From a virus (taxonomy: Duplodnaviria; Caudoviricetes): 64,000 nt of DNA. Each line of letters starts with the position of its first letter. Positions within the stretch are counted from its first letter, which is position 1. The stretch is taken from the IMG/VR virus record IMGVR_UViG_3300012344_000020, positions 1 to 64,000 of that record. The stretch is one strand, 5' to 3'. The notes below the pieces were generated by a model. It did not search any database, had not been told where the DNA came from, and was given only the letters and a program-made list of their open reading frames with translations. Positions 19,091 to 33,426 of the stretch are shown piece by piece. The position numbers and the translations under genes were made by a program.

Positions 19091-19947
19091 ATGATTGAAA
19101 TGAACAACGAGGCTGAGATTATCAAGGGAAGATGTCGCTTCATCAACGACCACTTTCAGAATTTCAAGACCTACGGCATACCCCATGCCCAACTGATTAT
19201 TGCCGACCCACCCTATAATTTGGGCAAGAACGCATACGCCAGCAACCCGGCATGGTACAACGATGGCGACAACAAGAACGGTGAGAGCGAACTGGCAGGT
19301 AAGGAGTTCTTCGACACCGACAAGGATTTCCGCCCGGCTGAATTTATGCACTTTTGCTCACAGATGCTCGTCAAGGAGCCGAAGCAAGGCGTTACCGACG
19401 AGGATATAGAAAACCCATCGGGGGGGCAGAGAACAACGGCAAGGCTGGCTCACGCAAGAAGAGCAAGGCTCCGTGCATGATACTATTCTGCGCTTTCGAG
19501 CAGTTGCAGTATTACATCGACCTTGGCAAGCGTTACGGCTTCATGCACTATATCCCGTTAGTGTTCCGCAAGAACTTCTCGGCTCAGGTACTGAAGGCTA
19601 ACATGAAGGTGGTGGGTAATTGCGAGTACGGTTTGATGCTGTACAAAGATAAACTGCCGAAGTTCAACAACGACGGGCAGATGATATTCAACTGCTTTGA
19701 CTGGCCTCGCGACAGCACTACGCCCAAGGTTCATCCTACGCAGAAGCCAGTGCAGTTGCTTGAACGATTGATAGAGATATTCTCCGACCCCGATGATGTG
19801 GTGATAGACCCTTGCGCAGGAAGTGGCACGACGCTTCGCGCAGCCATTCAGAAAGGCCGTAAGGCGTATGGGTTTGAGATAAAGAAAAACTTTTTTAATG
19901 ATGCACGCGACAAAGTTCTGAAGAGTTTTCAGATGTCGCTGTTCTAA
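19091..19947 (+). pseudogene. N4/N6 DNA methyltransferase (beta class) split by a frameshift in a G7 tract at 19420-19426; G8 restores a single ORF
   Basis: ADPPY in the 5' half; HPTQKP and DPCAGSGTT in the 3' half. Confidence 0.85.
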
Positions 19948-28569: not shown

Positions 28570-29175
28570 ATGATTATGCAGAAAGAAAAGAAAACAACTC
28601 CTCAGATGGCTATTGCAGCTTTCGAGCAGTCCTGCAATGAACTTGCCCGTCAGGTGAACCACCGCTTGTTTGACGACACGCGCTCATGGTACTGGATAGG
28701 CAACGAGATAGGCGGCTCCTGCGACTTTGATGATGCCGACATCCTCACACCCGAGGAAATGGTCATCATCCTCCAGACGCCCCACTTCACCTACAACGAT
28801 TATGCCGAGTGGCGCGATGCCAACATCGAGTATGGCGACACCAAAGGCTACATCAACCTGCGGTCGTGGATCATAGGTTGCCGACACTTTATGCTGGCGG
28901 ACAAAGCGAAGAAAGAAACTATGATAGAGCCGTCAGAACTACGAAAAAAGAGCATGGAAGCCTTCGATAATAAATGTCGTGCTTCACTTGAGAAGATACA
29001 GCCCGCGCTGCAAAAGACTGCTGAAAGCGGAAAAACGGAGCTCACTATTTCCGATGTGAAAAAGCATTATCCTGATGTGGAAGATTTGTGTGTAGCATTA
29101 CAGATGCACGGTTTCAGAACATTCTATTCAGAGTTTTTCGATAGTTTGACCGTTTATTGGTGTTTTCGCAAATGA
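28570..29175 (+). CDS. Hypothetical protein
   Basis: 201 aa ORF. Confidence 0.75.
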   Translation: MIMQKEKKTTPQMAIAAFEQSCNELARQVNHRLFDDTRSWYWIGNEIGGSCDFDDADILTPEEMVIILQTPHFTYNDYAEWRDANIEYGDTKGYINLRSWIIGCRHFMLADKAKKETMIEPSELRKKSMEAFDNKCRASLEKIQPALQKTAESGKTELTISDVKKHYPDVEDLCVALQMHGFRTFYSEFFDSLTVYWCFRK

Positions 29176-29303
29176 CCACTTACCAACTCTCCGTGCATCC
29201 CTTGAGCCATAAGGTAGAGTGGGGAGGGTGGAAGCCTGTCGCTCCTGCCCTCCGTGCCACCGACTACAAGCGTCCGCACTGTGTCCTTATAACGTATGAT
29301 TAA
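29172..29303 (+). CDS. TRD-like mini-protein 1 (43 aa, ...PALRATDYKRPHCVLITYD)
   Basis: ATGA overlap with the upstream gene; TL-type motif; YD C-terminus. Confidence 0.7.
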   Translation: MTTYQLSVHPLSHKVEWGGWKPVAPALRATDYKRPHCVLITYD

Positions 29304-29442
29304 ACTCTTACCTTTGAACGTGGATAAAGACCACACCGCCCCGACGGTGCTTGCCGGATATTTCAAGTTCGGCTCGCGCACTTTGTTGCTCGGCAACTAC
29401 GGCACTACTGGGGGGGGGGGAATCTGTATTGAATATGATTAA
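29296..29442 (+). CDS. TRD-like mini-protein 2 (48 aa, APTVLAGYFKFG...GGGGICIEYD); G11 tract in frame
   Basis: ATGATTAA coupling. Confidence 0.7.
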   Translation: MIKLLPLNVDKDHTAPTVLAGYFKFGSRTLLLGNYGTTGGGGICIEYD

Positions 29443-29582
29443 GATAAACTACCACATTCCTCTCGTAGGGGGGGGTACTATCGCAAGTGACCGATGCCTT
29501 CAACCGAGGGCCGCTTTGGCACGTTAGCCGATGTGTGAGGAGCAACGTGCATGATGCAGGAGCGCTCATCTGTTACGAATAA
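29435..29582 (+). pseudogene. TRD-like mini-protein 3; G8 tract (29468-29475) out of frame, G7 gives ...SRCVRSNVHDAGALICYE
   Basis: Frame analysis. Confidence 0.65.
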
Positions 29583-29597
29583 CAAAAAAGACAAACA

Positions 29598-30973
29598 ATG
29601 ATAACAAAATTCAACTTCAACGACCGCACCATCAAGAGCTATGCCATACGCAAGCTCACGCCAAAGGAGTGTTTCCGGCTGATGGGTGTGCGCGACGATA
29701 CCATCCGCACGATGCAGACCACCGTGGCGGAAATGAAAGAGCGCCGTGGGCAAGCCGACAATGGCGGCAAGCAAAAAGATGCCGACATGGTAATCTCAGC
29801 CAGTCAGCAGTACAAGCAGGCGGGCAACTCTATTGTGGTGGATGTACTCAAGGCCATCTATGCACAGTTGTGGTACCCCAAGGAGCCGAAGCCGAAGGCG
29901 CAGCTCTCCATGTTTGACGATTTCTTTCCCGAGGATGCGCTGCCGCAGATGCCGGTGGATGCTAACCATGGCGAGAAGGTCATCATCACCACTTTCAGCG
30001 GCTACGACTCGCAGCTCATGGCTGCCGACGCCTTAAAGGAGGAACATCCCGATTTCCGCTGGACGTGTATAGGGCGGAGCGACATCGACAAGTATGCCTG
30101 CCAGATGCACGACCTCGTGTTTCCGCAATATGCCGACCGCGCCCTTGGCGACATCACCAAGATAGACTGGCACAGCGTGAAGCAGTCGCTCGAAGGTCGC
30201 GAGGTAGACCTCTTCACCTATTCCTCGCCCTGTCAGGACATCAGTCAGGCGGGCAAGCAGATGGGACTGAAGGAAGGCTCCGACACCCGAAGCGCATTGC
30301 TCTTCGGCGTGTGGCGGATGCCATTGATGTATTGCGACCCAAGTATCTGTTGCAGGAGAATGTGGCGGCACTGGTGAGCGAGAAGTTTATGCCCGACTTT
30401 CAGAAGTGGCTCGCCAAACTCGAAAGTCTGGGATATGTGAACCGCTGGGCACGGCTCAATGCCAAGGACTACGGTGTGCCGCAAAACCGCGACCGCGTGT
30501 TCTGCCTCTCCATGCGCCGTGATGTGGCTTTCGACTATCAGTTTCCCGAAGGCTTCCCTTTGCAGACCAGGTTGGAGGATGTGCTTGAAGAGGAAGTGAC
30601 AGAAAGGTTTTTCCTCAAAGACAATGCCGTGGAGAAATTCCTTAAAGCCAACGACACCGACAAGGCTCTCTTCATGCAGTTCGACCTTCCGCCTACACAC
30701 GATGCGGCAATGTTCCTCAAGACGTGGCTCCAGATGTGGATGCGTGGTGATTATGGCTTTGATGATTCTTGTTATGAAGAAGAATGGTTTGAAGAAAACG
30801 GATATACGTATTGGGATTTAACGCCATCGGAACTTCAAGAAACATTAGAAAATATCAAGGAAGATTTGTGCCAAGCGCATTTGGCGTTTAGCAATAAAGA
30901 ACTGATGGATGAAGAGTTTTCCTTGTTGTTCCAAGAAAACATGAAACGCCGTCCGAAAGATGAAAACCGATAA
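29598..30973 (+). pseudogene. dcm: Circularly permuted C5-cytosine DNA methyltransferase (IX-X-I...VIII), frameshifted near 30301
   Basis: N-terminal IRKLTPKECFRLMG and YKQAGNSIVV; then TFSGYDS, SPCQD, QENV, QNRDRVF; deleting 2 nt at ctct[tc]gg gives LLWRVADAI. Confidence 0.88.
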
Positions 30974-31129
30974 TCCGCCAGAAAGGGTAATCCGCCCCAT
31001 CGTTCTCGGCCAATACTCGCCCTCGCAGAACGGCATCATCGTGTCGCCGCACGGCATAGCCCTCTGCATAAGTGGGGGGGTAGAGGACACGATGTGGATA
31101 AACCAAAGATATTGATTGAGTATGACTAA
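30960..31129 (+). pseudogene. TRD-like mini-protein 4; G7 (31074-31080) out of frame, G8 gives ...SPHGIALCISGGGRGHDVDKPKILIEYD
   Basis: Frame analysis. Confidence 0.7.
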
Positions 31130-31439
31130 AACGCCCACCTATAAGCGCGGCACGTTCACCAGAAACGGAAAGACCTACGGCATATATCCCGATGGTTCTA
31201 CCTACAGGATATATGCCGATAACAACATCCCTTTCCTTCAGATAGTGGATGTCGGAGGCAGCACGTTCCTCCGTGTGCGCCAGGCTACGGAGCAAGGCTA
31301 TGCCGACTGTCCCGTCTTCGGTGTGTGCGACATCAGCTATCCCTCGTCAGCCTTGCGCAGGGCGAGAACGGTAGATGGTGGCCGGCTGGCCAACGCCCTG
31401 ACGTGCGGGCAGCAGTTGGCGGTGTTTGTAGAATTATAA
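31122..31439 (+). CDS. TRD-like protein 5 (105 aa; VRQATEQGY..DISYPSSALRRAR..ANALT)
   Basis: Motif typical of phage Dcm variable regions. Confidence 0.75.
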   Translation: MTKTPTYKRGTFTRNGKTYGIYPDGSTYRIYADNNIPFLQIVDVGGSTFLRVRQATEQGYADCPVFGVCDISYPSSALRRARTVDGGRLANALTCGQQLAVFVEL

Positions 31440-31445
31440 AGAATT

Positions 31446-31576
31446 ATGACGAAATATCTGTTTTACCAATGTCCAAGAGGTGAAAATCGGGGGGTATTCT
31501 CTCGCAGAGCATCTGTCCTACCATCACCATTTGCAGTTGGGCGTGTAATTGTTTTTTGATAAAAGAGTATGACTAA
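31446..31576 (+). pseudogene. TRD-like mini-protein 6; G6 (31489-31494) out of frame, G7 gives ...ICPTITICSWACNCFLIKEYD
   Basis: Frame analysis. Confidence 0.65.
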
Positions 31577-31721
31577 ACAAATTCCATTCGTGCAACGCTC
31601 GGCATGTCTGAGTATTCGGGGGGGGTACTCCACGGCAATCTCCTCTCGCTACGACGGTTGGGCAGGCTTGTTTGGCAAGAACCACGGGCAGCACACTATG
31701 GTGCTGGTGGCGTATGAGTAG
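31569..31721 (+). CDS. TRD-like mini-protein 7 (50 aa, ends MVLVAYE); G8 in frame
   Basis: Coupled start; conserved C-terminus. Confidence 0.7.
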   Translation: MTKQIPFVQRSACLSIRGGYSTAISSRYDGWAGLFGKNHGQHTMVLVAYE

Positions 31722-31899
31722 GCACAGAGCGGTGCTTGTGCATTACCGCACGGAGGAAGCGAAAGCCTACCGCCGCGAGCATGGCGACCGTGGCGGATGC
31801 CGGTATCAAGACAAGCTGCACCGTATGAACCCGCAGCCGTGGAGCAACACAGTGAGTACAGTAACGAAAGACAACCTGTTATGCGAAGAATATACATAG
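31714..31899 (+). CDS. TRD-like mini-protein 8 (61 aa; SNTVSTVTKDNLL)
   Basis: SNT(L/V)xTVxKDN motif. Confidence 0.7.
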   Translation: MSRHRAVLVHYRTEEAKAYRREHGDRGGCRYQDKLHRMNPQPWSNTVSTVTKDNLLCEEYT

Positions 31900-32052
31900 C
31901 CGCTTCTCGCGGTCGCGACCCGCTGAATCCTACCGACCGCAAACACTCGGTGAAAGGACGCAGTGAGCAGCGGTTTTAGATTAATGGGGGGTACGAGCAA
32001 CGCCCTTACCTCTGTCGGCAAAGACAACTTAGTACTGATGGCGTATGATTAA
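31881..32052 (+). pseudogene. TRD-like mini-protein 9; in-frame TAG (31977) and G6 (31986-31991) out of frame; restored end SNALTSVGKDNLVLMAYD
   Basis: Frame analysis. Confidence 0.65.
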
Positions 32053-32224
32053 GCGATATTACATCGGTTGGGTGCGCAGCGGAAAGGACGGCCACGGACT
32101 CGTCAAGAGCCGACCGCGCAAGCATATTGCTAATGCCGTAACCGCCTCGCCACCCGGCGGCTTTGCCGACCCTCGCGACGGACTGGGCAACACTACTCCG
32201 CATGTGGTGATGGTGTTTGAGTGA
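32045..32224 (+). CDS. TRD-like mini-protein 10 (59 aa; IANAVTA..GNTTPHVVMVFE)
   Basis: ATGATTAA coupling. Confidence 0.7.
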   Translation: MIKRYYIGWVRSGKDGHGLVKSRPRKHIANAVTASPPGGFADPRDGLGNTTPHVVMVFE

Positions 32225-32265
32225 AGAACAACAACAGTAAAGAAACAACTAAAATTTATAGAGCA

Positions 32266-32766
32266 ATGAGTATTTACACGCAATATGAAAAGATTAAGTC
32301 GTTATGGCATCCCATAACTGACGAGGACTTCAATATTGATTTCAGTATTCCCTTTGTCCTGTTTTCTGATGAAGGCAGTATTCTGTACTTTAATCCGAAG
32401 CGTGATAAGTTGGATGACATTTGGGATGACATGGTTCTTTTCGAGGAAGACGGAAAGACGATGACCGAAGAATTTAAAGATCACATGCGCAGCTTTGAAT
32501 TCGGTTATATGTATCTCGATGATGAGTTTTATCGTGCGATAGACAATTTCCGACACAAACATCTGGAAGACGTAAAGGCGAAGAACGAGAGAGCCAATGT
32601 TTTCGTTCAATATGCGAACAATGATTTCCGTGTTCTTGATGTTTTTGACTTTCGGCAGGATGGCAGTCCGTACCGGGATTGGAACACATCGGATGTGGCA
32701 TATTTCGTAAACCTGGATAGTGTGCCTGCCACAAGTTTGAATGGCCTTTTTCTGCAAATGGATTAA
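32266..32766 (+). CDS. Hypothetical acidic protein
   Basis: TTTATAGAGCAATG leader. Confidence 0.7.
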   Translation: MSIYTQYEKIKSLWHPITDEDFNIDFSIPFVLFSDEGSILYFNPKRDKLDDIWDDMVLFEEDGKTMTEEFKDHMRSFEFGYMYLDDEFYRAIDNFRHKHLEDVKAKNERANVFVQYANNDFRVLDVFDFRQDGSPYRDWNTSDVAYFVNLDSVPATSLNGLFLQMD

Positions 32767-32792
32767 GAACAACTTAAATTTATAGAGCAATT

Positions 32793-33269
32793 ATGAAAGA
32801 AAACAAAGGACTATACAATGCGCTCATCCGCAGACTGGGCGAGATGGTGAAAGAGAATGTGGAACTGGAGCAGCGTGTGCATCAGCTCACGGGTGAGTAC
32901 AACCGTGTGGTGAAGCAGGCGAATGAGAAGTCTGTGGATTCTCTGATGAGCGAAAACGAAAGTTTGAAAAAGCTAAGCAATCAACTTCAGATAGAGCGCA
33001 ACGAGGCGCGTACCAGTGTGGCCGAATACAAACACCACGAAGCGGAACTACTCAATGCAATTAACCGACATTGCGAATCCGACATCATGAAGTGTGGTGA
33101 AACCTGTCCGAACAAACCAGGATGTGATGTAGGCTCAAAAGATTGCTGTGCTTGTAAGCATGAATTAGGACAAAAGAAATATCTTAGCGTTTACTTTATT
33201 TTTTGCGCCTACCGCTACGACAAGCAGCAGGAGGAAGAAGCAAAGGAAAGAAATAATGAAGATGAATAG
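32793..33269 (+). CDS. Coiled-coil protein with a Cys-rich C-terminus
   Basis: 158 aa. Confidence 0.7.
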   Translation: MKENKGLYNALIRRLGEMVKENVELEQRVHQLTGEYNRVVKQANEKSVDSLMSENESLKKLSNQLQIERNEARTSVAEYKHHEAELLNAINRHCESDIMKCGETCPNKPGCDVGSKDCCACKHELGQKKYLSVYFIFCAYRYDKQQEEEAKERNNEDE

Positions 33270-33426
33270 CCACCTCCATACACATTGCCTCGGCATGCTC
33301 ACCGTGCCGCCCTACGACCGCAAGTTTGAGCAGTCGCGCAGAGTGTTCTCCCCGAAGGGCGTTGCGCCTACGGTGTATACCTTCGGGGGGGGCAACCTTG
33401 AGATAAAGATATTATTGGAATTGTAA
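33256..33426 (+). CDS. TRD-like mini-protein 11 (56 aa; RVFSPKGVAPTVYTFGGGNLEIKI); G8 in frame
   Basis: Canonical RVxSPxGxAPT..GGG..KI unit. Confidence 0.75.
   Translation: MKMNSHLHTHCLGMLTVPPYDRKFEQSRRVFSPKGVAPTVYTFGGGNLEIKILLEL

Follow-up and report, generated by a model that had tools for sequence, protein, structure and literature searches.

Multispecific C5 cytosine methyltransferases (C5-MTases) of Bacillus phages, such as M.SPRI, M.Phi3TI, M.Rho11sI and M.H2I, use one catalytic core for several target-recognition domains (TRDs) of ~40-60 amino acids (aa), and the presumed role shared by multispecific phage C5-MTases is the evasion of several host restriction systems. All TRDs of these enzymes are part of one polypeptide with the canonical order of motifs. 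The locus described here is located in IMG/VR virus record IMGVR_UViG_3300012344_000020 (Duplodnaviria; Caudoviricetes), an 89.4-kb single-contig phage genome, of which positions 1 to 64,000 were analyzed (the window in the following, 64 kb in length). It likewise combines one core with several ~40-60 aa TRD modules, of which the window has eleven. Here, however, each TRD has its own gene and is not part of a tandem between motifs VIII and IX of a single polypeptide, the catalytic core is a permuted one, and a poly-G tract is present in many of the TRDs; the comparison with SPR and phi3T is one of layout. One core for several TRDs of this size is also found in uncharacterized multi-TRD proteins of the family PF00145, P0028 among them, and their tandem TRDs between motifs VIII and IX are sequence homologues of the phage modules. 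We assume that the locus encodes a modular, multispecific phage C5-MTase with free TRDs acting in trans and assign a probability of roughly 0.6 to this reading, whose trans-subunit step is plausible but unproven.

Circular permutation is known from the natural C5-MTases M.BssHII, M.Alw26I, M2.Eco31I, M.Esp3I and M2.BsaI (PMC5944983). As in the phage core, motifs IX and X are placed ahead of motifs I to VIII in permutants of the M.BssHII type and the permutation point falls into the variable region, but these enzymes retain a cis TRD, mostly in the Type H arrangement (TRD-IX-X-I..VIII), whereas the phage core is without a TRD. An active C5-MTase made from separate polypeptides that are cut in the variable region is represented by the alpha/beta split of the M.AquI type, including the enzyme of Dulem virus 40, whose beta chain has the same TRD types and the same linker motif between motifs X and I as found here. 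In the M.AquI type the beta chain comprises the TRD(s) together with motifs IX and X, whereas in our locus both motifs belong to the catalytic polypeptide and the free parts are the TRDs alone. Type I HsdS and Type III Mod phasevarions are an analogy only: specificity is apart from catalysis and is switched by simple sequence repeats, but these bacterial systems are amino-methyltransferases with unrelated recognition domains and have one switch per system, whereas here the tracts occur per module. Permuted, split and multispecific phage C5-MTases as well as phase-variable methyltransferases are already known; new is the combination of a TRD-less permuted core with arrays of free TRD genes and poly-G tracts in the individual modules, and we found no description of this combination in the full-text literature searched.

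The core is encoded on the plus strand, and its open reading frame (ORF) beginning at 29598 starts with ~16 residues ahead of motif IX (RKLTPKECFRLMG), followed by motif X (QAGNSIVVDV), a Pro/Lys-rich linker and motifs I (FSGYDSQ), IV (PCQ), VI (ENV) and VIII (QNRDR). Pfam matched PF00145 to both halves of the core with E-values of 2e-21 and 9e-23, and all conserved motifs of C5-MTases were found in both core ORFs of the window together and in the intact relatives. Past motif VIII the core continues only with the conserved beginning of the variable region, followed by a helical tail, and hidden Markov models (HMMs) of the TRD families had no match inside the core, the helical C-terminal tail included. 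Motif order, the two PF00145 matches and the absence of TRD matches confirm the permuted, TRD-less core that had been claimed in the original prediction. A comparison with seven relatives revealed an insertion of 2 nt near 30303-30312 in the window core, and because this insertion changes the frame, the core is split into two overlapping ORFs (29598-30377 and 30065-30973). Of the 80 related loci described below, 74 have an uninterrupted core ORF of 432-467 aa, and therefore we regard the frameshift as a private lesion of the window or an assembly error.

Eleven ORFs of 43-105 aa flank the core, U1-U3 (29172-29582) upstream as well as D1-D7 (30960-32224) and D8 (33256-33426) downstream, and all eleven mini-ORFs, which were already part of the original prediction, match HMMs of TRD modules made from relatives (Table 1). 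Pfam had no match for the single mini-ORFs of the window, and the TRD-family HMMs detected no module outside the locus in the 89-kb genome. Seven mini-genes are intact and U3, D1, D3 and D6 are broken; the frames of U3, D1 and D3 would be restored only by a different length of their G8, G7 and G6 tracts, respectively. Removal of one G from U3 would lead to an ORF of ~48 aa with the end ICYE in a three-frame reading, and relatives contain an intact U3 of 50 aa immediately upstream of the core; relatives of D1 with a G5 or G8 tract encode an intact protein of 49-50 aa. D6 has two lesions, an in-frame TAG (31977-31979) in place of a Glu codon in relatives and a frame change at a G6 tract (31986-31991). 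The intact U1 belongs to a family with a length of 43-44 aa in 23 full-length relatives, and its ATG overlaps the stop codon of the preceding gene (ATGA), while U2 has a G11 tract at 29410 and an overlap of 8 nt at either end. Junctions of the form TATGAYTAA occur at 29295, 29434, 31121, 31568 and 32044, with one further copy in the 64-kb window. D8 is set apart from the array by two unrelated genes. The Y(D/E)-like ending that had been ascribed to the C-termini of the mini-proteins does not apply to D2 and D8, which end with VEL and LEL, respectively. A scan of the locus for promoters and terminators revealed no excess over chance.

The assignment of the mini-proteins as TRDs is based on their matches in longer proteins. 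The D6 profile matched 403 longer proteins, and most of the 120 listed among them are PF00145 proteins with 55-69% identity, in which motifs VIII and IX enclose the match, and the distance from its end to motif IX is often 2-3 residues. Eleven module families match the same 120 listed proteins, and for ten families (U1-U3, D1-D3, D5, D8, E3 and E4) the match forms a tandem with D6-type TRDs of multi-TRD proteins. An example is P0028, where D8, D1, D6, the C-terminal half of D2 and U3 are all located between motif VIII (residue 158) and motif IX (residue 524); for D2, matches to cis TRDs are limited to this C-terminal half (HMM positions ~45-104). The D7 profile matched one of the 120 listed proteins, and the D7 and E7 types are cis N-terminal TRDs of other permuted MTases, as in the permuted MTase P0155 with its D7-type TRD fused in cis, N-terminal to motif IX. 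The expected match of the mini-proteins to the variable regions of C5-MTases was found in the form of homology to the cis TRDs of multi-TRD PF00145 proteins, and on the basis of these sequence matches we consider the mini-proteins to be true TRD homologues, freed from cis enzymes, and not decay fragments. Most of the module family profiles are mutually unrelated, which fits different specificities; D1 and D8 are related (hhalign 95%).

A scan of viral contigs for relatives identified 121 loci with the same permuted core (core identity 70-82%), located on contigs of about 10-110 kb with most of them in the range of 45-110 kb, and 80 of these loci were kept. The small ORFs flanking the core in this clade, 2-15 per locus, belong to at least 18 families, which are characterized by a sharply fixed length and a conserved Met and stop. 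D1 has a length of 49-50 aa in 53 of 56 full-length copies, D3 of 43 aa in 41 of 50, D5 of 60 aa in 51 of 57 and E5 of 58 aa in 33 of 38. The ratio of nonsynonymous to synonymous substitution rates (dN/dS, pairwise Nei-Gojobori) is 0.06-0.26 in 18 of 18 module families at dS values of 0.24-1.7, and these values indicate that the modules are kept as separate genes under purifying selection. An overlap of exactly 8 nt, TATGANTRR, connects 213 of 303 adjacent intact pairs, and it dictates both how the modules end, with Y-(D/E), and how they start, with M-(I/T/N/S); the remaining junctions are overlaps of 4, 14, 19, 25 or 29 nt or gaps of 2-50 nt.

The modules are shuffled, gained and lost between related phages, with 67 module orders in 80 loci, and D2 and D3, which are located downstream of the core in the window, are mostly found upstream of it in the relatives. 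The survey revealed the permuted core together with variable arrays as anticipated, with 80 loci kept, 67 orders and at least 18 families. A fused form of module and core, which would have pointed to decay of a larger gene, was found in none of the 80 clade loci; fused forms are restricted to distant relatives in clusters of <50% identity and are apparently evolutionary precursors or derivatives. A tblastn search of D1 against GenBank phages had no match, and the clade was not found at >60% identity in the GenBank phage collection.

Poly-G tracts are concentrated in the modules. Seven of the eight runs of at least six G in the 64-kb window fall within mini-ORFs, and in 81 loci the density of such runs is 1.42/kb in modules versus 0.091/kb elsewhere. 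These 81 loci contain 759 module instances, of which 585 are intact, 106 frame-split and 68 partial, and a run of at least five G is located at the junction in 92 of the 106 frame splits. Sorted by tract, the numbers of intact and split instances are 132 and 4 for G5, 9 and 25 for G6, 10 and 29 for G7, 31 and 22 for G8, 3 and 11 for G9, 0 and 1 for G10, and 2 and 0 for G11. In D1 and D2 with tracts of at least five G, intact modules are found only at G5, G8 and G11 and split ones at G6, G7, G9 and G10. A G7 tract inside the core is called as seven in 24 of 25 loci, and this constancy argues against sequencing error as the source of the tract variation. The length of the poly-G tract differs between relatives and sets the reading frame of the module, a pattern which is the signature of a contingency locus at the level of related genomes.

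The relatives can be arranged in an evolutionary series of four steps. Canonical single-chain multi-TRD enzymes are the first step and the alpha/beta split enzyme of Dulem virus 40 (L094, PP511379.1; 1403-3343) is the second one. Its beta chain comprises about five tandem TRDs together with motifs IX and X and ends with QLSLFDD, which is the linker joining motif X to motif I in the permuted core. Dulem virus 40 is a published phage genome from lemur gut, in which the M.AquI-like pair is annotated merely as two separate methylases. The third step consists of permuted cores with cis N-terminal TRDs (P0155, P0130 and P0171), and P0171 resembles a module read through into a core that retains its own Met. 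TRD-less permuted cores with arrays of mini-genes are the fourth step, represented by this clade and by the lineages L081, L084 and L085, whose cores belong to other 50%-identity clusters than the clade. L081 has five overlapping ORFs of 42-48 aa with the end ...VYEL or similarly hydrophobic ends, L084 has at least seven modules with eleven G7-G10 runs and L085 has two modules.

An AlphaFold2 (AF2) model of the core from the related locus L057 reached predicted local distance difference test (pLDDT) values of 85-97 across most of the catalytic domain, and its comparison with residues 1-195 of M.HhaI resulted in a Z score of 18.9 and a root-mean-square deviation of 1.9 Å with 189 aligned residues. 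For orientation, motif IX is located at residue 18, X at 74, I at 134, IV at 212, VI at 254 and VIII at 296 in P0121. The first 19 residues of the core are modeled as a beta-hairpin leading into motif IX, and one further strand follows motif VIII. It seems feasible that the hairpin and this strand are the rump of the small domain, where a module could be added. According to the proposed mechanism each module would be translated on its own, and the TATGANTRR overlap suggests a coupling by termination and reinitiation. The module would join the core in trans at the site of the cis TRD, beside the N-terminal beta-hairpin, and the core with any one module would form the holoenzyme. Each pair of core and module would methylate a different motif and shield the phage DNA from several host restriction systems, while poly-G slippage would turn single modules on and off across the phage population. 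The trans reading is strengthened because strong selection keeps free modules beside a core that is otherwise unable to recognize sequence. For the more specific proposal that the free TRDs of 43-108 aa are exchangeable specificity subunits which dock by beta-sheet complementation and are each gated by poly-G, with cassettes traded between phages, we see about even chances; sigma factors and HsdS would be analogous exchangeable specificity subunits for their enzymes.

Several points weigh against free TRDs acting in trans. The engineered class-J permutant splits cp361M.MpeI and cp357M.SssI consist of an IX-X-I..VIII core and a TRD-only polypeptide, the same topology as in the phage layout, and these splits of M.MpeI and M.SssI did not methylate in vivo (PMC5944983). 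The natural system may have evolved docking features that are absent from the engineered splits, or it may not work in trans. Furthermore, we modeled the natural read-through of D3, TAA, linker and core from L057 with AF2, in which TAA was read as Gly. Using a clade-only alignment, this D3-core model was poor throughout (pLDDT 61.8), and a deeper alignment led to a confident core (81.8) with the tethered D3 left unplaced (pLDDT 37-48). A comparison of the profiles of D1, D2 and D6 with PDB sequences had no meaningful match. The variation in tract length is one between genomes, not within one population, and the contig scan for the host led to bins of metagenome-assembled genomes with mixed taxonomy and one non-permuted Prevotella relative. 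In addition, the frame of the core is interrupted in the window and four modules are broken as well, and because of these defects the window copy as sequenced is probably unable to produce an active enzyme, provided that the core indel did not arise during assembly.

The inactive engineered trans analogues (PMC5944983) would fit an enzyme whose modules need covalent joining to a neighbor or to the core, either by recoding (stop read-through or +1 frameshifting at the TATGANTAA junction) or by poly-G slippage, and such joining would recreate a cis TRD-IX-X-I..VIII enzyme like the Type H permutants. The distant P0171 and P0186 are indeed composed of a module, a linker and a core with its own Met, and in P0155 a D7-type TRD is fused to motif IX; six loci of the clade have a module just upstream that shares the reading frame of the core, with a single TAA and 2-10 codons in between, and in L007 a poly-G shift fuses D8 to D5. 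Every module, however, retains its own ATG and stop, most modules are located downstream of the core or several genes off, with D8 even beyond two unrelated genes, and a fused core was not seen in the 80 loci of the clade. GAN-TAA is, to our knowledge, not a slippery site. Recoding at the junctions was rejected because the junction types vary, so that no single recoding signal fits, and we regard covalent joining as a whole as unlikely. It is also conceivable that the mini-proteins act without the phage core, as small, sequence-specific DNA binders that shield restriction sites or as modulators or hijackers of host C5-MTases or restriction enzymes. TRDs bear DNA-contacting loops, as seen in structures of M.HhaI, and the modules are under strong purifying selection, yet AF2 left the tethered module unplaced. 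We consider an action of this kind quite improbable, because the modules adjoin a TRD-less core, which is otherwise without sequence recognition, in every locus examined and are absent from the rest of the 89-kb genome, and we know of no TRD of 43-60 aa that binds DNA stably without a catalytic domain.

The highly shuffled order and content of modules between relatives and the short conserved repeats at the junctions would also be expected for a mostly silent store of cassettes, from which recombination or deletion occasionally puts one cassette beside the core, similar to pilS/pilE and the hsdS shufflons. This is very doubtful, as all cassettes have the same orientation and their own start codons, selection keeps exact ORF lengths, the locus contains neither inverted repeats nor a recombinase and module-core fusions were seen in no member of the clade. 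Finally, the mini-ORFs could be decay fragments of a fused multispecific MTase gene or artefacts of homopolymer sequencing. The +2 frameshift of the window core, the nonsense codon in D6 and three modules out of frame at poly-G are in line with this view and fused multi-TRD relatives exist, but across a dS of 0.24-1.7 the separate ORFs have kept their fixed lengths and their conserved Met and stop at a dN/dS of 0.06-0.26, such ORFs also occur in the lineages with cores of different 50%-identity clusters, 585 of 759 module instances are intact and the core G7 is called identically in 24 of 25 loci. Conserved separate ORFs, dN/dS and the spread over lineages led us to reject decay for the family, and decay or artefact taken together is extremely improbable.

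Table 1. Catalytic core and TRD mini-genes of the locus (positions refer to the window).
Feature	Description	Positions	Strand	Evidence
U1	TRD mini-gene, 43 aa, intact	29172..29303	+	HMM U1 1-43, E 2e-27
U2	TRD mini-gene, 48 aa, intact	29296..29442	+	HMM U2 1-48, E 4e-30
U3	TRD mini-gene, frame-split at G8 tract (29468-29475)	29435..29582	+	two HMM pieces in different frames, meeting at the tract
Core	permuted C5-MTase core, TRD-less	29598..30973	+	IX-X-linker-I..VIII, start of variable region, helical tail
D1	TRD mini-gene, frame-split at G7 tract (31074-31080)	30960..31129	+	HMM, frame reading
D2	long TRD mini-gene, 105 aa, intact, end VEL	31122..31439	+	HMM D2 3-108, E 2e-55
D3	TRD mini-gene, frame-split at G6 tract (31489-31494)	31446..31576	+	HMM; 43 aa in relatives
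D4	TRD mini-gene, 50 aa, intact, G8 tract at 31618	31569..31721	+	HMM D4 1-49, E 2e-29
D5	TRD mini-gene, 61 aa, intact	31714..31899	+	HMM D5 3-60, E 4e-39
D6	TRD mini-gene, inactivated	31881..32052	+	two HMM pieces, 1-32 and 37-57
D7	TRD mini-gene, 59 aa, intact	32045..32224	+	HMM D7 1-57, E 3e-34
D8	TRD mini-gene, 56 aa, intact, G8 tract at 33385	33256..33426	+	HMM D8 1-54, E 2e-28

The genome encodes a tape-measure protein of 2340 aa according to PHROGs and therefore belongs to a long-tailed phage; the length of this protein also ruled out a crAss-like identity, and no tRNA was found in the genome. The two genes between D7 and D8 (32221-32766 and 32793-33269, plus strand) had no match in PHROGs, the only database searched for them. 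The arrays of relatives also hold unrelated inserts, for example at 7521-7817 in L001, and therefore the arrays seem to tolerate moron insertion. The sequence TTTATAGAGCAA has four exact copies on the plus strand at 32255, 32779, 33443 and 34891, compared with 0.41 expected by chance; three of them are located 1-3 nt upstream of the ATG of an ORF (32793, 33456 and 34907) and the fourth one abuts the ATG at 32267. The genes associated with it are the unrelated ones within or just past the TRD array, and TTTATAGAGCAA probably acts as a promoter or leader element of the phage, absent from the TRD mini-genes.

Long homopolymers were also observed at other positions. A G7 tract (19420-19426) divides an N6/N4 amino-methyltransferase gene (19091-19947, plus strand) into two overlapping ORFs, with DPPY in the N-terminal part and the motif for binding of S-adenosylmethionine in the C-terminal part, and this gene may represent another phase-variable or else broken methyltransferase of the same phage. 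The second cluster of long homopolymers in the genome is located beyond the window (genome positions 69358-69455 and 69619) and contains G9, G13 and G18 tracts within ~100 nt and a C9 tract nearby; the gene around these tracts looks by eye like a PAPS-reductase/DndC-type protein. A C9 run at position 55, at the start of the contig, is the only run of at least six C in the window.

In every characterized C5-MTase known to us the TRD is part of the same chain as motif IX. If the phage TRDs are supplied in trans, they would be the first separate specificity subunits for this class of enzymes and a TRD of ~50 aa would be an autonomous unit. The arrays would then be a natural test case for the way in which multispecific MTases present alternative TRDs to a single active site, a question for which we know of no solved structure, and would provide at least 18 natural TRD types as a library for programmable cytosine methylation. 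With switches in the individual modules, one phage lineage could sample up to 2^n methylation states. In widespread gut phages of ~45-110 kb, such per-module poly-G switches would serve as a contingency system that allows escape from restriction-modification as well as from methyl-dependent restriction, and they would affect host range in the gut.

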